A stretch of 34,236 bases of DNA from a virus (Duplodnaviria > Caudoviricetes). Within the stretch, counting starts at the first letter, position 1; each line of letters opens with the position of its first letter. Under the pieces are notes generated by a model. That model searched no databases. It saw only the letters and a list, made by a program, of their open reading frames with translations, and was not told where the DNA came from. Below, piece after piece: positions 11,222 to 27,500 of this stretch. The stretch lies in IMG/VR virus record IMGVR_UViG_3300037419_001349, positions 1 to 34,236 of that record; one strand, written 5' to 3'. The translations under genes and the position numbers were made by a program.

Positions 11222-12534
11222 GTCCTCAGAAATACCTGAGGCCCTGGCATACAGGCCGTGGAGATATGGTTGGTAAGAGCACTGCCACGTGTTATGAGCA
11301 GACTGTGACCATCGTCCGCGGCTTTCGTTATAAGCTAGAACCGCTGCCCGAGCAGGAGCCCTTGTTCCGACAGTTCGCGGGCGCGTGTCGTCTCGTCTAC
11401 AATCTCGGACTGGAGCAGAAGGCGACTTGGGGACGGAAGCACCGTCTCAGCTACGTCGCTCAGGCCGCCGATCTGACTAGGCTCCGCGCCGAGTTCGACT
11501 GGATACGCGCTGTCTGCTCCTCATGCCAACAGCAGGCTTTGCGCGACCTCGACCGGGCGTTCCAGAACTTCTTCGCAGGCCGCACACGCTTCCCTCAGCC
11601 CCGCAAGCGCGGCGTCAATGATAGCTTCCGCTTCCCCGGACGTGAGGTCGCGATTAAGCCCCTGAACGGCAAGTGGGGTGCCGTGCGCTTGCCGAAGATC
11701 GGCTGGGTTAAGTTCCGCGCCACGCGGCCGATGCGAGGTGACCTGAAGAACGTGACCGTCAGCCGCGACGCGCTCGGTTGGCACGTCGCATTCACCTGCG
11801 AGATCGAACACGAAGCGCCAGCGCCCAGCCCCGAAGTCGTCGGGATTGACCGGGGTGTGGCCACAACCTTGGCCCTGTCCACGGGCGAGATGCGGACGAT
11901 GCCGGGGAACCTGGAGCGGATCGAGGCTCGCAAGCGCAAGGCACAGCGCGTCGTCGCCCGGCGCAAGCGCGGATCGAACCGACGCCGCAGGGCGCAGGCC
12001 CGCGTCGCGCGCCTCCAAGCCCGGCAAGCCCGCATCCGACGCGACTTCCACCACCGCGCGGCGCTCGACATCGCGCGCCGGTACGGCGTGGCCGTCCTTG
12101 AAGACCTGAACACGCGTGGCATGACAGCCAGCGCGCGGGGTACGGTGGCCGAGCCCGGCCGCAACGTCCGGCAGAAGGCCGGGCTGAACCGGGGCATCCT
12201 CAACGCGGGCTGGCACCAGTTCGCGACGATTTTGACTTACAAGATGAAGGAGCGGGGCGGACAGGTGGTGACTGTGCCTGCCCGGTTTACGAGCCAAACC
12301 TGTTCGGCATGTGGTGTGGTTGATGCGCGGTCTCGCGAAAGCCAAGCGAGGTTCCTGTGCGTGGTTTGTGGCCACAGCGATCATGCCGACATCAATGCTG
12401 CGATAAACATACGGCGTCGGAACACGGCGTTGCTGGACGTGGAGGGCTTGCATCAGCAGCCCTATGAAGCGTCAACTGGACGAGATCTCGCGATCTCCGA
12501 AAATCTCCGTCTTTCACGCCGGGGAAGATGTTAA
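11222..12534 (+). mobile_element. IS200/IS605-family (IS1341-type) element carrying tnpB only
   Basis: Related subterminal hairpins at 11242-11262 and 12505-12525 (14/21 identical). Right end AAAT-hairpin-AAGATG-TTAA. Removing 11222-12534 restores ATG TCC TCC ACT GAC GCC of a tail-gene paralogue. No tnpA present. Confidence 0.8.
11266..12534 (+). CDS. tnpB: RNA-guided endonuclease TnpB
   Basis: N-terminal GFRYKLEP...FAGACRLVYNLGL; RuvC I GIDRG, RuvC II LEDL, Zn finger CSAC...CVVC, RuvC III ADINAAINI all intact. True start may be GTG 11305. Confidence 0.95.
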   Translation: MVGKSTATCYEQTVTIVRGFRYKLEPLPEQEPLFRQFAGACRLVYNLGLEQKATWGRKHRLSYVAQAADLTRLRAEFDWIRAVCSSCQQQALRDLDRAFQNFFAGRTRFPQPRKRGVNDSFRFPGREVAIKPLNGKWGAVRLPKIGWVKFRATRPMRGDLKNVTVSRDALGWHVAFTCEIEHEAPAPSPEVVGIDRGVATTLALSTGEMRTMPGNLERIEARKRKAQRVVARRKRGSNRRRRAQARVARLQARQARIRRDFHHRAALDIARRYGVAVLEDLNTRGMTASARGTVAEPGRNVRQKAGLNRGILNAGWHQFATILTYKMKERGGQVVTVPARFTSQTCSACGVVDARSRESQARFLCVVCGHSDHADINAAINIRRRNTALLDVEGLHQQPYEASTGRDLAISENLRLSRRGRC

Positions 12535-18906: not shown

Positions 18907-19469
18907 CCCTCGCCGCACGCTTCCGCCGCAGCATTACGCTCTGGATCGGGCTCGCTCTATCGCTTTGTTATTGGGCCGTCGCCCCGTTCCTAGCCACCAA
19001 CGCTCAAACGGAGTGGCTGCGGGTCGGGATGATCATTTTCAGCGGCGCCGCGATCCTGGCATGGCTCCCGGCATTCCGGGAAATCATCCTGCGGCCTTCC
19101 CCGGTGGAGGCTCAGCAGAGCATTGTGGGGCAGGTGCTGTTCTTGAGCGGGGTGTTCGGGAGTGCGATTTGGCTCCTGCTCTGGCGCGCGGCCGGGTTCC
19201 CGGCTTGGATGATCCAGTCCGACATCAACGGCTTCTGGCTCTGGCTGGAAACCCTGGGCTGCATCTTCTCTTTGATTGCGCCGAAGGACATGGCCAAGGT
19301 GCCGCCGCGGACGCGATGGGAGCGCGTGTGGATCGCCCTGATCCTCACTGTGGTTTCGGGCTATCTGCTGATCGTGGCCCATCCCGATCTCGCCCCCCTC
19401 GTCGACTGGCTGAAGGTCTACCTCTACGACGATCACGCAGGGCTGCTATGGAGATCGCCGCACGCCTGA
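18903..19469 (+). CDS. Multi-pass membrane protein (about 5 TM)
   Basis: Five hydrophobic stretches; last gene of the late operon before the terminator. Confidence 0.7.
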   Translation: MTLAARFRRSITLWIGLALSLCYWAVAPFLATNAQTEWLRVGMIIFSGAAILAWLPAFREIILRPSPVEAQQSIVGQVLFLSGVFGSAIWLLLWRAAGFPAWMIQSDINGFWLWLETLGCIFSLIAPKDMAKVPPRTRWERVWIALILTVVSGYLLIVAHPDLAPLVDWLKVYLYDDHAGLLWRSPHA

Positions 19470-19525
19470 CCCGGAGCCGCGCCTCCCGACGCGCCTAGAC
19501 CAAGATCCCAGACGAGACCCGAGAA

Positions 19526-19556
19526 CCCGCCCGGCCTAGCCGCGGCGGGCTTTTTT
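19526..19556 (+). terminator. Rho-independent terminator of late operon
   Basis: CCCGCC...GGCGGG stem followed by CTTTTTT. Confidence 0.8.
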
Positions 19557-19606
19557 GTCCCTGCAATCCGGATCAGCACGGATGCCGCTCCGGATTTGGA
19601 TCGGCG

Positions 19607-20362
19607 CTACGCCGCGACGATGCGCGGTCGCGCGTATTCTTGGTTGGCTTCGACGAAATCCTGGAACGGATGCCCCGGCTTGAACGCCATGAAGATGCTG
19701 CGGTCCCGCCCGGCGCTAGGTGTCTCGTATTCCAGTACCGTCTCGAACCCGTAGTGCTTGAGCAGGGCATGCATCAGGAGCGAGTTCGGTCCCCATCCGT
19801 GTTGCGGTCGCGTCGGCGGGTTGTTCTCGCCCCGGTAAAAGACCATGACCGGCCGCGGGTTGTCCTGATTGTCGATCACGGTCTCGACGGTAAGGACGTG
19901 TTTGGCGATCTTGGACATGCGCTCGATGGCGTTGATCGGGTCGACGATGTGATAGACGATACCGTTAAATAGAACGATGTCGAAGGTTCCGACCGTTTCC
20001 GGCGACATCTCCGGAATGTCGATGAGCTTGTCTTCGATCTTCGATCCGAGCGCGCCCTTGGCGAACTCGAATTGAGCGCGACCGTTGCCATTGACCCAGC
20101 AGAACTTGTCCACGGCCAGGACTCGAGAGGCTCCGCGCTTTTCGGCCTCAAAGCTGTAAAACCCGTTCCATGCGCCGACATCGAGAATGGACCGCCCCTC
20201 GATACCCATCCGAAACAGTATGTTGGCAACCGTCATATGGTGTTCGTGAACACCGTGGTCCGGCGCGATCACGCCGTTACCGTAGTCGATGCTGTGATAC
20301 CAGCTGCCGAGATCCTTGACCCGCTGGTGTATTTGTTCCGGAGTCATGTCGTGCGTGGGCAA
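19607..20362 (-). CDS. Class I SAM-dependent methyltransferase (DUF1698/CmoB-like)
   Basis: WYHSIDYGNG; motif I ILDVGAWNGFYSFEA..RGA.RVLAVD; FDIVLFNGIVYH. Confidence 0.85.
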   Translation of the reverse strand: MPTHDMTPEQIHQRVKDLGSWYHSIDYGNGVIAPDHGVHEHHMTVANILFRMGIEGRSILDVGAWNGFYSFEAEKRGASRVLAVDKFCWVNGNGRAQFEFAKGALGSKIEDKLIDIPEMSPETVGTFDIVLFNGIVYHIVDPINAIERMSKIAKHVLTVETVIDNQDNPRPVMVFYRGENNPPTRPQHGWGPNSLLMHALLKHYGFETVLEYETPSAGRDRSIFMAFKPGHPFQDFVEANQEYARPRIVAA

Positions 20363-20438
20363 TGTCCTAGCTCCTCAAGCAACCGCGGCCAGACCTAGCG
20401 CGGATCTGCCACCTAGGCCAGACCCTGACGAGACCCGA

Positions 20439-20470
20439 GCCCGCCGGCCGCCGCCTCGCGGGCTATTTTC
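20439..20470. terminator. Terminator-like hairpin, second copy of the 19494-19556 repeat
   Basis: GCCCGC...GCGGGC stem followed by TATTTTC. Confidence 0.5.
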
Positions 20471-20480
20471 CTTTCTGGCC

Positions 20481-20708
20481 TCAGTCGTCCGGTTCTCCCG
20501 TCCCAATGACCTTAACCAAATCCCTGCCGGCTTTCGTCAGCAGCCAAACCGGCCGCCTCGGCCGCATCTTTGATACGCCTTCACGAACCAATCCCATCTC
20601 CACCAACCCGGCCATCACGCTCGGATAGGCTTCACGGCGCAATCCTCCAGGGCTGGCGGCAAAGGCTCGGAGGGCGGCTAGCTGGCGAGGGGTGAGCTGG
20701 GGCGGCAT
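20481..20708 (-). CDS. Small winged-helix-like protein
   Basis: LTPRQLAALR...LVEMGLV...WLLTKAGR pattern; ATG 20708. Confidence 0.6.
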   Translation of the reverse strand: MPPQLTPRQLAALRAFAASPGGLRREAYPSVMAGLVEMGLVREGVSKMRPRRPVWLLTKAGRDLVKVIGTGEPDD

Positions 20709-20769
20709 GGTGCCGAACGTAACGGGGCGGATAGCTCGGGGAAGGGCGGTGGCCCCGTCCGCCATACCC

Positions 20770-20979
20770 TCAACGCCGCGGGCGCCGCCGCTCGCGTTGC
20801 TTCCAATCCTTCCGGCGCGGTTCACGGTAGAGCCGCGGATCGAAGTCCGGCGGCGTCTCCTCGCGCTTGATCTCGACCGCGGCCACAGGCTCGACCCCTT
20901 GGTCGGCAAGAGCCTTTGCGATGGCCCCGCCGAGGCTGTTCGCTCCTCCGGCGATGATCGCCAGCCGTCGTTCCCGCAT
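20770..20979 (-). CDS. Hypothetical protein
   Basis: 69 aa with purine-rich RBS region, co-oriented with early genes. Confidence 0.55.
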   Translation of the reverse strand: MRERRLAIIAGGANSLGGAIAKALADQGVEPVAAVEIKREETPPDFDPRLYREPRRKDWKQRERRRPRR

Positions 20980-21015
20980 CCCTTGCTCTCCCTGTTGGCG
21001 GAGATCGCTTCCGTC

Positions 21016-21288
21016 TCACTCGGCCGGCAAGCTAGCGAGCACAGCCTCGGCGCGGATCAGTGCCTCACGCATCCGTGCGATGTCGTCGGCCAGATCGGCT
21101 CGGACAGAAGCAACCGGGTGGATGCTGATGCCCTCAACCTCGGCGCGGTATTCTCGCGCGGTCTTCCCGCTGAACATGCCGGCCTCGGCAATGCGGAGCG
21201 TGTATCCCTCGGCGTTGGGTCGGAACCACCCGCCGTTGCGTCGAATGAAATGCGCGTCATCGGGTAGCATGCCTGTCTCCTCTCGCAT
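21016..21288 (-). CDS. Hypothetical phage protein
   Basis: GWFRPNAEGYT..IAEAGMF motif typical of small phage early proteins; start may be ATG 21270. Confidence 0.65.
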   Translation of the reverse strand: MREETGMLPDDAHFIRRNGGWFRPNAEGYTLRIAEAGMFSGKTAREYRAEVEGISIHPVASVRADLADDIARMREALIRAEAVLASLPAE

Positions 21289-21334
21289 GGCGGAAATCCC
21301 AGAAATCGGAAATGCTCGCTAAGTGCCTGAAGTA

Positions 21335-21703
21335 TCAGGCCGGCTCCTTTGCTTGCGCCTCGTCGGTCCTAACATCGGCCCCAACACACGCGCGCACTTC
21401 GGCAAGGGCTGTCGCAACGCGTTCATGATAATCGTCCCATGCCCAATCGGATGCGAACCGCTGCGCACCCGGCTCCTCCTCACCTGTCTCCGTGTCCCAA
21501 CAGTCATGCCTAGGCCCGGCGTCGCGGACCGCGAGGTATGTGGCAACGGCCTCCCGCAGCCGCTCATTCTCGGCCCCAACTCTGGCCCCGTCAGAGGCGC
21601 GCAGGTACGCCGCGGCATCAGTCATCGACTTGCGCAGCGGTTCACTGTCAACAAATAACGCACACTGCTCTAAGCTTAGAGCGTGCTTCTCCGCGTCGGT
21701 CAT
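21335..21703 (-). CDS. Hypothetical phage protein
   Basis: 122 aa, AENERLREAV coiled segment. Confidence 0.55.
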   Translation of the reverse strand: MTDAEKHALSLEQCALFVDSEPLRKSMTDAAAYLRASDGARVGAENERLREAVATYLAVRDAGPRHDCWDTETGEEEPGAQRFASDWAWDDYHERVATALAEVRACVGADVRTDEAQAKEPA

Positions 21704-21759
21704 TTCTTGGCGCTCCCGGTAAATACTTGCTAAAATGTCCGTAATCCCAGGTATCGAAC

Positions 21760-21957
21760 TCAGCGCGGCCGACGAAGGTCTAGCAGTCTCCGTTGCGCCC
21801 GCTTAAGATCGCCCGTGTAGAGCCACCAGCCATAGGATCCGGGCGACAACCACGCCCGCGTGGCTCTCAGGTGCCGACAGGCCCAAAGCGCACGGGCGCG
21901 GGGCGTATCGGGCATGGGCTCGCCAACAAGCCCGCGCATCAAAAGTGCAGTGCTCAT
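21760..21957 (-). CDS. Hypothetical protein
   Basis: GAGGAGAG RBS; 65 aa. Confidence 0.5.
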   Translation of the reverse strand: MSTALLMRGLVGEPMPDTPRARALWACRHLRATRAWLSPGSYGWWLYTGDLKRAQRRLLDLRRPR

Positions 21958-21994
21958 CGCCCTCTCCTCAGTATGGGTTCTACCGTCTCCGCCA

Positions 21995-22243
21995 TCAGGC
22001 GGGGCGGGCGAGGGCGGCTATCGGCACGCAGCGCCAGCCGTCGCGGGCCAGATCATCGAGCCTCCAAGGATCCGCCGGCCCGAAGCAGGCTCGCAGGCTC
22101 TCGGACGCTGAGCCATGGGCGGACGGCCAGAACGGCTCACCATCGGGTCTGACGCATACGAAGCCGGTGACGGGGATGTCGCTCGTCAGCGGCGCCGTGG
22201 CCGGCGTGAGTAGTGGCACGGTCAGGTATGGATTGCTTCGCAT
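21995..22243 (-). CDS. Hypothetical phage protein
   Basis: GGAGA RBS before ATG 22243; ends W..L.RDGWRCVPI. Confidence 0.55.
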   Translation of the reverse strand: MRSNPYLTVPLLTPATAPLTSDIPVTGFVCVRPDGEPFWPSAHGSASESLRACFGPADPWRLDDLARDGWRCVPIAALARPA

Positions 22244-22331
22244 CACCGTTTCTCCGTCATTTGATAACCCGACAGCGTTTCCCGACAAGATCGGGGCTGT
22301 TTTGATGGGCTTGGGATGGGTCTGGCCGCGG

Positions 22332-22359
22332 TGTCGGGAAAACGGCCGCTAAGCCGACA
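22332..22359. repeat. 28-bp palindromic-ended repeat, copy A
   Basis: TGTCGGGAAAA CGGCCG CTAAGCCGACA; contains the stop codon of the DUF551 gene. Confidence 0.85.
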
Positions 22360-22591
22360 CAGACGGCTCGTTCTTCTTACCGGACGGCGGCGCTGGAGCC
22401 GGCATCCAATGCGTGGGCGGGAAGTGGTGCGGCCAGCGGATCCAGTCTCGGGCACCTTCACCCCACCACGCCTGATAGATGTCTGACCATCCGCTAGCGC
22501 CTGGATAGCGGGCGATCAGCAGGACGTATTGCAACTCGCCCTGCTCGTTGCGGCTGGTCTTTGGCGCCGTCGAAATCGGTTGCCAGTCCAT
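22349..22591 (-). CDS. DUF551-like phage protein
   Basis: MDWQPISTAPK...PTHWMPAPAPP. Confidence 0.85.
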   Translation of the reverse strand: MDWQPISTAPKTSRNEQGELQYVLLIARYPGASGWSDIYQAWWGEGARDWIRWPHHFPPTHWMPAPAPPSGKKNEPSVSA

Positions 22592-22605
22592 CGCCTCTCT
22601 CCTGA

Positions 22606-22633
22606 TGTCGTGAATACGGCCGCTATTCCGACA
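22606..22633. repeat. 28-bp palindromic-ended repeat, copy B
   Basis: TGTCGTGAATA CGGCCG CTATTCCGACA; 24/28 identical to both A and C. Confidence 0.85.
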
Positions 22634-22639
22634 GGTCGT

Positions 22640-23203
22640 TTAGGTTGCCCGCAGCGCCTCGTAGCGGGACAGGAACCACGCTTTGGCCTCAGCAGGCGCC
22701 ATGGTCGGAATGGTGATCGCGGCCGGCTCCCGCCCTCGCGTGTAGTTCCAATCGTCCCGGTTTCGCATAAGCTGCCGTTGCTCGGTCGCCAGCATCACAA
22801 CGTCTATTTCCTTCACTGCGGCCGGCATGGGCTGTGGAACGCCGAACCGTTCGAAGACAGCGGCCTCGATACGCTTCTCTAGCGCACGATAGTCCGGCAA
22901 CAGGTCTTTGAGCGGCTTCGCCACGTCTCCGACGAGAGCTTCTGCGGCATCGTGCATTAGGCCAGCGAAGGCATGTTCCGGCGGCACAAGCTCGGAGACG
23001 TGAACGCTGTGCTGCGCCACAGAGTAGAAGCGCTCGCAGTGCCCGGCGAACCGGCAGATGTGCGAGAGCCCATGCGCGATGTCCTCGATTGTGAACTCGC
23101 TCTGATCAGGCGCCAGGAAGTCAAAATAATTCCCGCTGGCGAGCAGGATGGTCGGGCCAACGATACGGCGGACGGTCGGGCTATAAACCTGGGCAGCTTC
23201 CAC
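22640..23203 (-). CDS. HD-domain phosphohydrolase (YfbR/5'-deoxynucleotidase-like)
   Basis: IEDIAHGLSHICRFAGH...YSVAQHSV...LMHDAAEA.VGD..KPLK. Confidence 0.9.
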   Translation of the reverse strand: MEAAQVYSPTVRRIVGPTILLASGNYFDFLAPDQSEFTIEDIAHGLSHICRFAGHCERFYSVAQHSVHVSELVPPEHAFAGLMHDAAEALVGDVAKPLKDLLPDYRALEKRIEAAVFERFGVPQPMPAAVKEIDVVMLATEQRQLMRNRDDWNYTRGREPAAITIPTMAPAEAKAWFLSRYEALRAT

Positions 23204-23243
23204 GGGTGTTCTCCTGGTCCTATTTGCGCGCTACTGCGCCGAC

Positions 23244-23271
23244 TGTCGGGAATACGACCGTTAGTCCGACA
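23244..23271. repeat. 28-bp palindromic-ended repeat, copy C
   Basis: TGTCGGGAATA CGACCG TTAGTCCGACA. Confidence 0.85.
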
Positions 23272-23305
23272 GCGCGGGGCTATGCGCTGCCGGAATGGCG
23301 CGCCA

Positions 23306-23638
23306 TCAGGGGCGGTCGCTGAAGTTAGACAGCGCCGATACCGGCACGCGGGCGCTGTATCCGAAATCGGCGTTGAGCTTTTCCGTGATCCCGACATCGC
23401 CGAAGCGTGACGCCATTACGACGCGCACTCGCTTGCCCTGATGATCTGCAAAGAGCTTCGGCGGTGGCCCGCGCCAAATGTGCGGGCGCAGCTCGGGGCT
23501 GACCCATTTTTCATCTCTCGCCGGGTAATTGCAGACGGCCGGCAGGCGCGCCCATCCGAGGTAGCGGCGCAGGCACTCGGGCTGTGCCGGATCGTCTATC
23601 AGATCGTCGCAGTGCTCGGCGGCTTGGGTGTCCATCAC
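23306..23638 (-). CDS. Conserved-looking hypothetical phage protein
   Basis: GKRVRVVMASRFGDVGIT..L..D.GY..RV motif; GAGAGGA RBS. Confidence 0.7.
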   Translation of the reverse strand: MMDTQAAEHCDDLIDDPAQPECLRRYLGWARLPAVCNYPARDEKWVSPELRPHIWRGPPPKLFADHQGKRVRVVMASRFGDVGITEKLNADFGYSARVPVSALSNFSDRP

Positions 23639-23677
23639 GTCCTCTCAAGATGTTGTGGTTCGGTTTGGGTATGCCTT

Positions 23678-23980
23678 TTAGGAACCGGCGGGCGTGAGGG
23701 CGGCGCGGACAATCTCCTCAATCCGATCTGCTCGGGCATCCCGGTCGCCGTAGATGTGATTGACCATCGGGATCTCTCGCAGGGCCTCGCGAAGCCGGGT
23801 TTTCTCCCCGTCGAGTTCGCCGAGTGCCTTGTCTGCTCGGGCCGCTGCGGCTCGAATGCGGCACAGGTCTTCCAGCAAGCGGCGGTTCTCGGCTTGAAGC
23901 TCCCGAACCTTGTCGCGCAGGGTAAAAAGCATCTGCTGCGCTACGTCCTCGGCTATGATCGTGATACCTTCGCTCATCAC
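23678..23980 (-). CDS. Hypothetical coiled-coil phage protein
   Basis: 100 aa, RLREALREI...IVRAAL. Confidence 0.6.
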   Translation of the reverse strand: MMSEGITIIAEDVAQQMLFTLRDKVRELQAENRRLLEDLCRIRAAAARADKALGELDGEKTRLREALREIPMVNHIYGDRDARADRIEEIVRAALTPAGS

Positions 23981-24078
23981 TCATTTCCTTGCATAGGAAA
24001 AATCGGGCTGTGCGGTTTGGTATGCCCTTTGTGAACCAGCGTCGGACTGGTTCAGGAAGTGGCGCTTTGCCGTTCAAA

Positions 24079-24095
24079 ACCGACCGGCGGTCGGT
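24079..24095 (-). terminator. Candidate terminator hairpin in early region
   Basis: ACCGACC-GGC-GGTCGGT perfect stem followed by TTT on the - strand. A second perfect 8-bp hairpin lies at 24032-24054. Confidence 0.45.
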
Positions 24096-24134
24096 GAACC
24101 ATCCAAGGCAGACCGGTGGGTCGGCGAACGCAAG

Positions 24135-24329
24135 CTAAGCCGCATTATCTTGCGTTGGGGGCGAGGCCCGGCGCTCCATCATGTACGCCACGGCCTCGCG
24201 CAGGATGGCGCGCACAATGGCCTCTTCGATGCCGTCCAACGAGCCGAAGGTCGTGGCTGCGCGGGCCTCGCGCATGGCCTTCATGCACCGCTCCACCATC
24301 TCGGGCTCGGGCCTGTATTCGGTCGCCAT
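24135..24329 (-). CDS. Hypothetical protein
   Basis: GAGAGGA RBS; 64 aa. Confidence 0.55.
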   Translation of the reverse strand: MATEYRPEPEMVERCMKAMREARAATTFGSLDGIEEAIVRAILREAVAYMMERRASPPTQDNAA

Positions 24330-24338
24330 CTCGTCCTC

Positions 24339-24917
24339 TCAGTCCTGCGGGGTGGTGGGGGCGAGGGCGGTTCGCTTCAGCCCGAAGTCCCGGAGCTTGA
24401 TCTTCGCCATGCGTCCGTCCGGATGGTGGAAGACCAGCCCCTCAATGTCCTTGCCGGACAGCCACTCGCGCAGGCCATCGAATGAGCGCGGCACATCGGC
24501 GTGCAGGCTCATCGTCTTATGAGCGACGAGCTCGTGCTCCGGGTGATGCTCGGCATTGCCCTGCACCTTCGGCCCAACAAGCTCATAGGTGCCATCCTCT
24601 AGCTTGTCCCACTTCTCCAATGCCGCACGGTGCCAGCGGTCTTCCGGGCCTTCTCCGACCGGCAGCCAGCCGACTGTCTTGCCGGTCTCCTCGTCGTGGT
24701 CGGCGATCTCAAAACCGGCCGGCGGCGCCTTTCCCGGCTTCACCTCGTGCCGCTTGTAGAGCCGGCCGTCGCGCACAAGACAGCACGTCCCGTCGAGCTT
24801 CTGTGTCGGCCATCCCTCGCCGGCAAAGACCCAGGCGCAGTCGCGATGCGGCACGTCCACGACGCGGCTCCTGTCGCCGTTCCAGTCGCGGTCGAAAATG
24901 GTCGGGATCTTCTTCAC
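24339..24917 (-). CDS. RNA ligase-like nucleotidyltransferase (DUF5565/RLIG1-like)
   Basis: Motif I TQKLDGTCC, GTYELVGPKVQGN, IEGLVFH, MAKIK. Confidence 0.8.
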   Translation of the reverse strand: MKKIPTIFDRDWNGDRSRVVDVPHRDCAWVFAGEGWPTQKLDGTCCLVRDGRLYKRHEVKPGKAPPAGFEIADHDEETGKTVGWLPVGEGPEDRWHRAALEKWDKLEDGTYELVGPKVQGNAEHHPEHELVAHKTMSLHADVPRSFDGLREWLSGKDIEGLVFHHPDGRMAKIKLRDFGLKRTALAPTTPQD

Positions 24918-25011
24918 GGGTTGCTCTCCTATCGTTCACGCTGAGAGTTGTGCGGTGCTCACGAGCCGCCAAGCTTTCGAGAATTGGCGATCTCGAAAGC
25001 TTCGGGTGAGG

Positions 25012-25371
25012 TCAGCCGACCTCGTAGAGGCCGCCGACCCTGACGTTGACGACGTTCGTGACGTGCGGGCGCACAATGAGACCGTCGCCGTCGAGGCTGC
25101 TTATGTTCAGCCACGTTTCGCCCTTGCTGTAGCTTCGCTCAGCCGTGATCTGGATCTTGCCGGTTGAGCCACGGAAGATCAGCCGCCGGGTCTGAAGGGG
25201 CGCGGGAAAGGCCGTCTCGTTTCCGAAATAGCCTTCAAACCAGAAACCCTGGCAGTACTCCGGATCGCCCTTGCCGAGCAGGGCGTCGCGATCCTCGCGA
25301 AGGCGTTCGACCTCGCGCCGGAGCGCTTGCATCTGATCGCGCGCCCATTTCGGCAGCTTGGTCTCGTCCAC
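25012..25371 (-). CDS. Hypothetical phage protein
   Basis: KLPKWAR N-terminus, LIVRPHVTNVVNV C-terminus; GGAGAGA RBS. Confidence 0.65.
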   Translation of the reverse strand: MDETKLPKWARDQMQALRREVERLREDRDALLGKGDPEYCQGFWFEGYFGNETAFPAPLQTRRLIFRGSTGKIQITAERSYSKGETWLNISSLDGDGLIVRPHVTNVVNVRVGGLYEVG

Positions 25372-25402
25372 GGGCTTCTCTCCGTAGTGTATGGGGGAGG
25401 GG

Positions 25403-25972
25403 TCAGGCGGAAGCCATGTCGCCGGGATTGGTCAGGATCTCGCCGCCGCGAACCATCATGCTTGGCGTCCGGCCGAGCTTGCAGAAGGCATCTGCTCGTG
25501 CCTGACCCCAGCCAGCCTTCGGCAGGTTGTCGGGATCCAAGCGGCCGGCGCCTGCGAATTCCTCAACAGCGCGGCTCTGGTCCCAGAAATCACCATGCTC
25601 GGCGAGGTAGGCGGCGAGTTCGTCCAGCGTCGCGAACGGCGGTGAAACTGGGCTGCCTTCGCTAACCGTCTGGAAAAGCTGAAACCACGTCGCCTCATCG
25701 TCGCTGTAGGGGCGATGGGTCAGAGGCGTCGGACTCGGCCCTTCATCCTCTTCAAACGTGTAGGTCGGGTCGTCTTCCGCGCAGGACGGCCGCTCGCCGG
25801 CATCCCACTTCGCCTTGGCCGCCTCCCACTTTGCGAGCGCAGCCGGGAAGTGCTCGTCCTCCATCGGGACATACTCAAGCTCCAACCGATAGCCGACCCG
25901 TGGCCCCCAACGGAGGACCATGTGCGTCGGATGCGACCAGTTCGGCGGTACGCGGCGGATCTCACGGCCCAT
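25403..25972 (-). CDS. Conserved-looking hypothetical phage protein
   Basis: GGAGG RBS, MGREIRRVPPNWSHP...WFQLFQTVSEGSPVSPPFAT..ELA.YL. Confidence 0.75.
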   Translation of the reverse strand: MGREIRRVPPNWSHPTHMVLRWGPRVGYRLELEYVPMEDEHFPAALAKWEAAKAKWDAGERPSCAEDDPTYTFEEDEGPSPTPLTHRPYSDDEATWFQLFQTVSEGSPVSPPFATLDELAAYLAEHGDFWDQSRAVEEFAGAGRLDPDNLPKAGWGQARADAFCKLGRTPSMMVRGGEILTNPGDMASA

Positions 25973-25983
25973 CAATGCCTCCA

Positions 25984-26046
25984 AAGCGATATCCGATTGC
26001 AGCCTAATCCGATACCGGATAGAGTGCAACAAGCGATATCGGATTA
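25984..26046. promoter_or_regulatory. Divergent promoter region with three operator-like boxes (consensus AATCCGATATCGG)
   Basis: AAGCGATATCCGATT 25984-25998, AATCCGATACCGGAT 26006-26020, AAGCGATATCGGATT 26031-26045. Confidence 0.65.
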
Positions 26047-26055
26047 GAGCTTCAA

Positions 26056-26277
26056 ATGGCGAACGCTGAAGGCGCAAACACGCTCGGAGATGCCTTGCCT
26101 CGCGAGATGGCGAGAGTGCGAGACGAGGTTCTGCCCGAGTATGATGCGATCCCGGCCGGCATCTTCGCGGCGACCATGATGCGCCAGTCATTGGATGCAG
26201 CGGCCCGCGCCATGGTCGAGGGCGACACCGTCGCGATGATCCAGTGCTATGAGGATTTGAAGGGCTATCACCTGTGA
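26056..26277 (+). CDS. Hypothetical phage protein
   Basis: TLGDALPREMARVRDEVLPEY..IPAG.FAA...GD.VAMI..YEDLKGY; protein-like, divergent from the early operon. Confidence 0.75.
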   Translation: MANAEGANTLGDALPREMARVRDEVLPEYDAIPAGIFAATMMRQSLDAAARAMVEGDTVAMIQCYEDLKGYHL

Positions 26278-26327
26278 GCGTGACGACTCAGGTGCAAGCC
26301 AATCCGATATCGGCTACGGCTCGGCGC

Positions 26328-26510
26328 ATGCCGAAGGAGAAGCTGCCCGAAGTGATGCCCGTCCGCTTTCGCGAGGGCACCTTCGCCAAGATCGATGAGG
26401 TGGCCGGCGAGAACCGCCGTGCCGGCTTCATCCGCGAAGCCGTGGAAGCGAAGCTCAAGGCATCATCTCGTACTTCTCGGCAGCTTTCTCCCAAGCCCAA
26501 GCCGGACTGA
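26328..26510 (+). CDS. Ribbon-helix-helix (CopG/Arc-like) regulator
   Basis: VMPVRFREGTFAKIDEVAG.NRRAGFIREAVEAKL is a beta-alpha-alpha pattern. Alternative start GTG 26274. Operator box at 26301-26315. Confidence 0.75.
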   Translation: MPKEKLPEVMPVRFREGTFAKIDEVAGENRRAGFIREAVEAKLKASSRTSRQLSPKPKPD

Positions 26511-26555
26511 TCTCTGGTAGGCTCTGCCCCCTCGCAAACCGAAAGACGGCTCCCG

Positions 26556-26765
26556 ATGGACGATGACGAGTACGACCGGGTCGTTGACCCCGATGGGCCT
26601 CCCCCGTGGATCCACCTCCTGCCGGAGCAAGGCCGCGCGTGGCGAGCCAATGAGATCCTGAGAGGTCGGAACCCAGATCCGTTCCTTGAGGGGCAGCTTC
26701 GGGAGTCTGGTGAGTGGCCGCCGGGTGCGAAGAAGCCGCGCAAGGCCACCCCCAAGCCCGACTAA
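26556..26765 (+). CDS. Hypothetical protein
   Basis: 69 aa, ends PKPD like the preceding gene. Confidence 0.45.
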   Translation: MDDDEYDRVVDPDGPPPWIHLLPEQGRAWRANEILRGRNPDPFLEGQLRESGEWPPGAKKPRKATPKPD

Positions 26766-26841
26766 TCGCCTGAGAGGCGGGGAGGGGCCTTGATGCATGG
26801 CTCGGCGGCAGGTACTCAAAAGGCGGTTTCTGTCGCCCGGC

Positions 26842-27294
26842 CTAAGCCTTGCGGGCCGCGCCGCGCGTTAGGAACCGTGTTCGACCCGCCGCTAGGCCAA
26901 GCGCGTCCTGGCGATTGAGGTCGGGTCGCCCAGCGTACAGCTTCGTCAGGTGATCTGAGCCAAGCCGCTCCTGCCAGAATGCGTTGACGGCCTCACGCGC
27001 CTCGTAGGCGTAGAGGGGGCTGTCGGTGAGCAATTCGGCTACCTCGGCTGCCAGCCCCTCAAACCGGAACCATTCATTGCGGTGATGCAGCCCGGCGCGG
27101 CGCAGCTCGAAATGGACAGCCTTCTCTGATGTTTCATCGCCGATCATCACGCCGATGAGCGTGACGGGCCATGGCGAGGCGGTGTTAAGGATCGCGACCC
27201 GTGCCGGCGGCGTCTGAGTGAACCCGACCTTCACGAAGCCCTCGCAGCGCGCGAAGTAGACGAGATCGGCGCGCAGGTAGGTTGGCCTCGGCAT
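26842..27294 (-). CDS. T5orf172/MUG113-like GIY-YIG domain protein
   Basis: VYFARCEGFVKVGFT...RV..LNTASP...E..VH...NEWF. Confidence 0.8.
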   Translation of the reverse strand: MPRPTYLRADLVYFARCEGFVKVGFTQTPPARVAILNTASPWPVTLIGVMIGDETSEKAVHFELRRAGLHHRNEWFRFEGLAAEVAELLTDSPLYAYEAREAVNAFWQERLGSDHLTKLYAGRPDLNRQDALGLAAGRTRFLTRGAARKA

Positions 27295-27423
27295 CTCAGT
27301 TTGCCCCTTCAAAACTGGCCCAACCAACGGTTCACCAATGATTGGCCGGAACCGAACGTGAACCGGACGCAGCGAAACCCCTCTGTCGTGACGAATTTCG
27401 ATGCGATTTGCGGACGAGCGTTG

Positions 27424-27470
27424 CGCTCATAACGGTCTGGTTGCAGGTTCGAGTCCTGCCGGGCCCACCA
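27424..27470 (+). other. attP core: 3' half of tRNA-Ile2/Met (anticodon CAT) ending CCA
   Basis: CGCTCATAACGGTCTGGTTGCAGGTTCGAGTCCTGCCGGGCCCACCA contains the anticodon loop CTCATAA, T-arm GCAGG-TTCGAGT-CCTGC and CCA. No 5' half upstream. 30 bp from the integrase stop. Confidence 0.9.
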
Positions 27471-27500
27471 TTCCCATCAATGGGTTAAGGTGGGAAGCTA

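Follow-up and report, generated by a model that had tools for sequence, protein, structure and literature searches.

Gene cassettes of a temperate phage are bounded by apparent copies of a plasmid serine-resolvase site

How phages acquire mosaic genomes whose junctions fall between genes is a long-standing question, and the usual answer is illegitimate or relaxed homologous recombination. The known res systems have two full res sites and are used to split dimers, serine recombinases require matching central dinucleotides, and attC sites are active as folded single-stranded DNA. Serine resolvases cleave site I at its central 2 bp, and two bare copies of site I are not recombined by the WT Tn3 resolvase (excerpts of PMC12217951). 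Sites with mismatched centers give trace recombinants only (excerpt of PMC11607074). The CinH-RS2 resolvase shuffles plasmid DNA between replicons through foreign res sites (Kholodii 2001, as cited in excerpts of PMC9501444 and PMC12217951), and pdif sites flank their modules in inverted orientation (excerpt of PMC9501444). In the phages RB49 and phi1, the short PeSL repeats lie at accessory-gene boundaries, a chimeric single repeat replaces the flanked gene, and mini-circles occur (excerpt of PMC2839356); the words 'resolvase' and 'site-specific' are absent from that paper. Our literature search, with most subscription journals outside its range, did not turn up any account of phage cassettes bounded by orphan res sites.

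We analyzed a window of 34,236 nucleotides (IMG/VR record IMGVR_UViG_3300037419_001349), a 34-kb part that represents ~61% of a temperate phage. Mu-like baseplate genes and lysis genes are followed by small accessory genes that run leftward (19607-27327), past which lie an attP core formed by a tRNA 3′ end (~27425-27472), an integrase gene, and a Rad52-like gene. Records of Methylobacterium and Bradyrhizobium contain matches to the attP core, and the best named matches of the integrase are Methylobacterium/Methylorubrum proteins; from these two lines, Methylobacterium is the likely host. Among cultured phages, matches to the window were limited to the HD gene and the tRNA end. Near the attP core (~26825-26840), we noticed CGACAGAAAC repeats, also found in the close relative G408, that may be integrase arm sites. 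A TnpB/IS605-type gene (11266-12534) lies amid the tail-fiber genes. The divergent small genes at 25990-26050 and 26056-26765 carry repeated ATCCGATAT-like boxes and are possibly a ribbon-helix-helix regulator with its operators. A methyltransferase gene (19607-20362) ends the array before a shared terminator, and G408 has another gene at this place.

The sequence-only reading of this DNA had proposed that three 28-bp direct repeats of 11-6-11 type delimit single-gene cassettes in the early region. The repeats are present as claimed. They start at 22332 (site A), 22606 (site B), and 23244 (site C), agree with each other at 24, 23, and 24 of 28 positions, and each begin with TGTCG and end with CGACA. 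Scanning the window with a matrix made from the three sites, we found no fourth copy (next score 5.8 versus 45-47). The top 28-mer direct repeat at ≤1 kb distance in 19401-27400 matched at 24/28 positions, against 20-22/28 in all 30 Markov controls; the three repeats thus exceed the chance level. The interval lengths of 274 and 638 bp were also borne out.

All parts of the array lie on the minus strand. Its first member is site C (23244-23271; center GT on the gene strand), which is followed after 40 bp by cassette gene 1 (22640-23203), coding for an HD-domain 5′-deoxynucleotidase-like protein of 187 aa (phrog_318, E 2.6e-76). The stop codon of this gene is 6 bp from site B (22606-22633; center GC), as described before. 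Directly after site B come the RBS and cassette gene 2 (22349-22591), which encodes a DUF551 protein of 80 aa (PF04448) and whose TAG stop codon indeed falls in site A (22332-22359; center GC). An AGGAG motif precedes both genes, in line with the proposed RBS. The base pair outside the ends had been said to co-vary. It is paired in sites A (G..C) and C (C..G), but site B has an unpaired A..G. Being paired in two of the three sites, the outer base pair carries no weight as evidence.

Comparison of sequences makes it close to certain that each of the three repeats is a copy of site I from the res element that belongs to a serine resolvase family of Methylobacterium plasmids. A search with the element of the window itself produced no useful plasmid match. 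A metagenome contig, L070, has a lone site with the same downstream tail, and the L070 copy matched nine plasmid records, eight of them from Methylobacterium. In the eight plasmid records that we opened, an intact resolvase gene stood directly behind the element in six, a truncated one in one (L179), and the remaining record had a bare site. The gene codes for 193-201 aa with PF00239 (Resolvase) and HTH_7 domains. Its family occurs in 36 plasmid records (E ≤ 1e-60), including 26 from Methylobacterium or Methylorubrum. The closest solved relatives of the protein are Gin, gamma-delta, Tn3 resolvase, and Sin, and the nearest resolvase-family matches in cultured phages are DNA invertases, ~50% identical. 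A TnpI-like tyrosine resolution site, with a core and direct repeats (PMC2847244), had also been considered and was dropped because the serine resolvase gene was found.

The 10 plasmid/metagenome elements and 6 phage elements have one layout, in the order 28-bp site I, 44-bp spacer (43 bp in one), direct-repeat boxes, and an inverted pair reaching the start codon. The res of the window spans 134 bp (22226-22359), and site A is the site I of this full-length element. The spacer (22288-22331), of 44 bp in 15 of the 16 aligned elements, leads to two accessory boxes of 12 bp, arranged as a direct repeat (22263-22287), that align with plasmid res. These boxes are the 'extra half-sites' of the sequence-only reading, which we found at 22268 and 22281. 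Sin site II likewise has its accessory boxes in direct repeat, as this one pair does (excerpt of PMC9943657). The last accessory pair is inverted and covers 34 bp (22226-22259). The distal box of this pair has decayed, and it overlaps with the 5′ end of a small ORF (21995-22243), which occupies the place of the resolvase gene on plasmids. The homologue of this ORF in G408 sits outside the array, and in another phage, G003, a phage gene starts exactly where the resolvase start codon would be.

Compared with the 10 plasmid/metagenome res elements, the window element agrees at 18-22/28 positions of site I and at 22-29/40 of the accessory part, and the spacer is alike in its 44 bp. The spacer sequence drifts (16-25/44 identical), while its length stays. 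Site C shows a mean identity of 20.3/28 to 18 plasmid/metagenome sites. Accessory subsites are absent at sites B and C, so these two are bare site I copies rather than full res. Seven whole plasmids (248 kb) contained 11 sites, six at a resolvase gene and five bare, compared with 0-1 in 10 Markov controls; hence, bare copies occur on plasmids too. In one plasmid (L186, NZ_CP099615, 6813-17924), we observed one full res plus three bare copies of site I separating cargo modules. The earlier statement that the repeats are neither attC nor the attP core is supported. An integron IntI was not found beside the array: the sole PF00589 gene of the window, 4 kb off, encodes the prophage integrase at attP, and PF00589 genes are absent from the complete records G001-G003 of related arrays, each of which has 3-4 sites.

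The 11-6-11 division was not confirmed. Aligning 42 copies from phages, plasmids, and metagenomes, we find that they fit 13-2-13. The center reads CG-nn-CG, in which positions 12, 13, 16, and 17 are 93-100% conserved and positions 14 and 15 are conserved at 55 and 50%. The phage centers are GT (11), GC (11), and AC (2), and those of plasmids and metagenomes are AC (8), AT (8), TT (1), and GT (1).

Pattern scans of IMG/VR revealed such sites in six further phage records, at an equivalent location and with differing genes between the sites. The counts are four in G001, G002, and G004, three in G003, six in G408, and three in the 8 kb seen of L196; a few degenerate sites scored under the matrix threshold and were placed by hand. 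No such sites were present in G409. Every record has one cluster, with the sites in direct repeat and at the ends of genes. G408 is a close relative of the window, and hardly any structural genes of the window recur in G001-G003 or G004. The scans differed in yield. The exact three-site consensus gave no match in viral contigs, and a relaxed pattern gave 20 loci with an array in one. The accessory-box pattern hit 12 viral loci (5 known, 1 new, which is L196, and 6 chance), and the direct-repeat pattern hit 47 (4 known and, among those examined, 2 new arrays, with the others unrelated). The 24 loci in GTDB genomes and 32 in metagenomes were single, chance-like matches, except for L070. Just upstream of the array, G001 (35000-37400; L100 15093-17366), G002, and G003 carry ParA and a plasmid-like replication region, and these integrase-less records may be phage-plasmids.

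The intervals between sites (n = 18) measure 218-1443 bp. A single gene per cassette, as first proposed, is the common case, but several intervals in the relatives contain two or more genes. Three kinds of payload recurred between sites, each in three phages: DUF551, an HTH unit, and a phrog_1273-like gene. The DUF551 homologues of G003 and G408 are flanked by two such sites, and the phrog_1273-like gene occupies slots 1, 2, and 4 in different phages. Recurring gene families occur in the same or in different slots. None of 12 relatives of the HD gene has such sites, so this gene family is not tied to them. The accessory regions also share about ten non-coding linkers of 30-110 bp in a largely kept order, and the genes between these common linkers are mostly unrelated across phages. 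At the linkers 24328-24370, 25341-25369, 26749-26778, and 20638-20667, metagenome contigs break, consistent with identical linkers in several phages of one sample. Some junctions lie outside the sites, with unrelated genes having common flanks of 15-25 bp, and a gene common to G003 and L196 changes at its 3′ end 20-30 bp before the site.

If the sites delimit cassettes, a genome lacking the cassette genes should have one hybrid site. Such a natural variant exists in X3, a rhizosphere run that is not flagged as the source of the window. One X3 contig (512 nt, depth 3.7) matches 22233-22341 and 23254-23656 with 0 differences. It joins 22341 to 23254 and leaves out 912 bases, a length equal to the A-to-C distance, so that both cassette genes, HD and DUF551, are gone and one hybrid site is left. 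Sites A and C differ at positions 10, 14, 18, 21, and 22. The contig has the letter of A at position 10 and that of C at position 14, placing the joint between these positions, beside the center, and outside the 9-bp and 6-bp perfect blocks that the two sites share. The likelihood ratio from the joint position is modest (~0.5 versus 4 of 29 possible positions). As A and C share at most nine consecutive bases, repeat-driven misassembly is unlikely; the variant is a single contig, for which a library chimera is possible. Further X3 contigs match the window without differences, a contig of X4 runs across site B with both genes present, and at loose contig ends in X2 and X5 relatives cease to resemble the window within sites B and C. 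The metagenome evidence consists of assembled contigs, with no circle seen, and gaps in runs X2-X6 were left out of it. With this variant, the claim that the sites delimit gene cassettes is supported. The plus-minus pair of window and X3 fits gain and loss of cassettes alike and does not tell between them.

We favor, with the odds moderately on its side, a mechanism in which the repeats are copies of a plasmid res site I, and a plasmid resolvase acting in trans cuts their central 2 bp and thereby deletes, inserts, or swaps genes. Catalysis in trans by the resolvase of a host plasmid is, on its own, somewhat probable. It is inferred from the failure to find this resolvase family in the phages, which also counts against the mechanism: no member was found in the window, G001-G004, G408, or G409, where the best matches were resolvases of G001 and G002 at 34-36% identity, and PF00239 is absent from the window (~61% complete), G004, and G408. 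The resolvases that G001-G003 do encode were rejected as cognate enzymes, being 34-39% identical to the family and, in G001, having no site before the gene. According to the mechanism, a phage lineage would have captured a res site, whose resolvase gene was replaced by a phage gene. At low frequency, the host plasmid resolvase would synapse the full phage res with a bare site I and release a promoter-less circle made of right arm, RBS, gene, and left arm; alternatively, a circle would be taken up just upstream of the full res. Rare events could be enough over evolutionary time.

The need for matching centers implies that neighbors with equal centers are lost more easily and that a GT site next to a GC site is trapped. 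Mismatched insertion followed by replication would leave such unequal neighbors, which would resist re-excision and could stabilize the array. Across six records, 1 of 12 non-terminal neighbor pairs had equal centers (within-phage permutation p = 0.009), as did 4 of 6 terminal pairs (p = 0.15); the pairs are not independent, the first site being GT in six records, and one site with a 1-nt deletion was counted as GC. L196 (GC, GC, GT) opposes this pattern and brings the totals to 2/13 non-terminal and 4/7 terminal pairs. Arm-flank linkage in the phage sites (left r 0.10, p = 0.04; right r 0.06, p = 0.19) localized crossovers poorly. Given this weak linkage and the off-site junctions, capture of genes into cassettes probably uses microhomology as well. 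The published Tn3 site I and center-mismatch data run against the proposed mechanism, and the X3 joint unites a GT site with a GC site.

The serious and main rival, to which we assign a clearly lower probability of perhaps one chance in a few, is that the sites are relics of res and serve as passive homology anchors ('boundary sequences') for annealing proteins or slippage, with no catalysis by a resolvase. The window encodes the Rad52-like protein and a NinB/Orf-like mediator, G001 and G004 encode RecE-like exonucleases, Rad52-like enzymes accept diverged substrates (excerpt of PMC3945230), and the PeSL repeats act in this way in T4-like phages (excerpt of PMC2839356). The roughly ten other linkers, of the same order and with differing genes, and the junctions outside sites also suit it. 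However, PF04098 was found in none of the four related records searched, and passive anchoring leaves unexplained why palindromic boxes, the CG-nn-CG center, and the 44-bp spacing persist despite drift in the spacer sequence, why the X3 joint is away from the longest identical blocks, and why bare copies occur on plasmids.

A retention of the sites as operators of a plasmid resolvase or phage regulator, or as RNA-processing hairpins, with incidental recombination, appears improbable. A res does overlap the promoter and start of its resolvase gene (excerpt of PMC12217951), and the transcribed strand at the sites folds, though weakly (-7.0 to -8.9 kcal/mol, z -1.4 to -2.4). Yet we detected neither a sigma-70 promoter match nor a coding-strand terminator match at the sites, the two terminator-like matches nearby being on the non-coding strand; no protein is found in all site-bearing phages as a common regulator (a D5-like regulator is in five of six); and a precise hybrid site occurs naturally. 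More improbable still is the original idea of dif/pdif-like 11-6-11 sites worked by host XerCD or a phage tyrosine integrase. The 28-bp length and the A/T-rich inner arm positions speak for it, and a 6-bp tyrosine spacer would also suit the X3 joint, but the plasmid context, with the element preceding a serine resolvase, largely refutes it. The sites match the dif of Agrobacterium and Bradyrhizobium, the two references used, at 7-9/28 positions, and the arms match two Rhizobiales dif (sequences from an excerpt of PMC2731167) at 6-8/22 in either orientation. Four of the six central positions are strongly conserved, unlike the variable 6-bp center of dif type. As the three complete site-bearing phages G001-G003 have no tyrosine recombinase, the phage integrase is excluded as the common enzyme, and neither it nor XerCD is supported.

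The accessory region holds further sites. A putative res of a second, unrelated plasmid resolvase family lies on the plus strand at 24009-24119, with its site I at ~24009-24037 and its accessory boxes upstream in the gene direction; this stretch aligns with DNA before a different resolvase on an M. radiotolerans plasmid. A bare site I of the second family (23657-23686, no strand assigned) brackets ORF 23678-23980 together with 24009-24037, and run X2 contains a weak joint 23676-24043 (side 21 nt). A 30-bp near-perfect palindrome at a gene boundary (24124-24153) is conserved in G001, G002, G004, and G408. Another palindrome of ~37 bp (24976-25012) separates the DUF7239 gene from the RNA-ligase-like gene; G408 has its DUF7239 gene within the res-site array instead.

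Downstream lies a third family of sites, in which short inverted arms enclose 7-bp spacers whose sequence depends on the slot. We observed such sites at 21290-21760, 20990-21020, 20750-20770, and 21975-22000. The units of this family measure 400-600 bp. Judged by eye, 8 of 13 have the same 7-mer at both ends, three have a near match, and two differ; unoccupied single sites exist. These sites may resemble integrase cores at tRNA-Ser ends, arm repeats, and IHF sites, and a search for a cognate integrase of the 7-bp-core family found none. In the unit 21760-21290, one 7-mer stands at both ends, direct repeats of GTTGGGGCC type lie in pairs at domain junctions of ORF 21335-21703, and six related phages have units like it with other payload domains. 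Tentatively, and at somewhat less than even chance, the whole accessory region of 5-8 kb may be a multi-recombinase cassette rack, in which host enzymes move genes and domains at ordered borrowed sites and mismatched centers act as a lock. Such a rack would combine the res of at least two plasmid resolvase families with the integrase-core-like series and its slot-specific 7-bp spacers, and would exchange single genes, even single domains, between unrelated phages and plasmids.

For the question of phage mosaicism, the junctions described here can be recognized as sites of an enzyme that has a name, can be cloned, and comes from a different class of mobile element. The host genus is tractable, a plus/minus pair occurs naturally, and one plasmid gene with a 1-kb substrate would make the question directly testable; the sites also suggest a phage-plasmid route of gene exchange. 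If the mechanism is true, a WT resolvase acts on bare site I copies, unlike textbook resolvases.

The element resembles the res of Tn3/gamma-delta TnpR, Staphylococcus Sin resH, and Acinetobacter CinH-RS2 in its 28-bp site I with two inverted boxes of ~12 bp and a 2-bp center. Like the res of small resolvases, it has accessory boxes at fixed spacing and, on plasmids, stands before a gene of ~195 aa with PF00239 and HTH_7. It differs from the known res systems in that the phage res has no resolvase gene and is preceded by 2-5 bare site I copies in direct repeat, each of which closes a gene cassette. CinH-RS2 shuffling concerns plasmids and transposons, whereas here a phage array is made of mostly one-gene units and the enzyme apparently acts in trans. 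With the PeSL cassettes, the array shares repeats at gene boundaries and the alternation of a gene with two repeats and one chimeric repeat; unlike the promoter and stem-loop units of PeSL (excerpt of PMC2839356), the repeats are recombinase sites without a promoter match. The Acinetobacter pdif modules and integron arrays have the same site-gene-site order and promoter-less genes, and pdif modules likewise borrow an enzyme encoded elsewhere. Those two systems use the tyrosine recombinases XerCD and IntI, whereas the phage sites are direct repeats of a serine-resolvase site, and the cargo modules of the plasmid L186 are a serine-resolvase parallel to the pdif modules.
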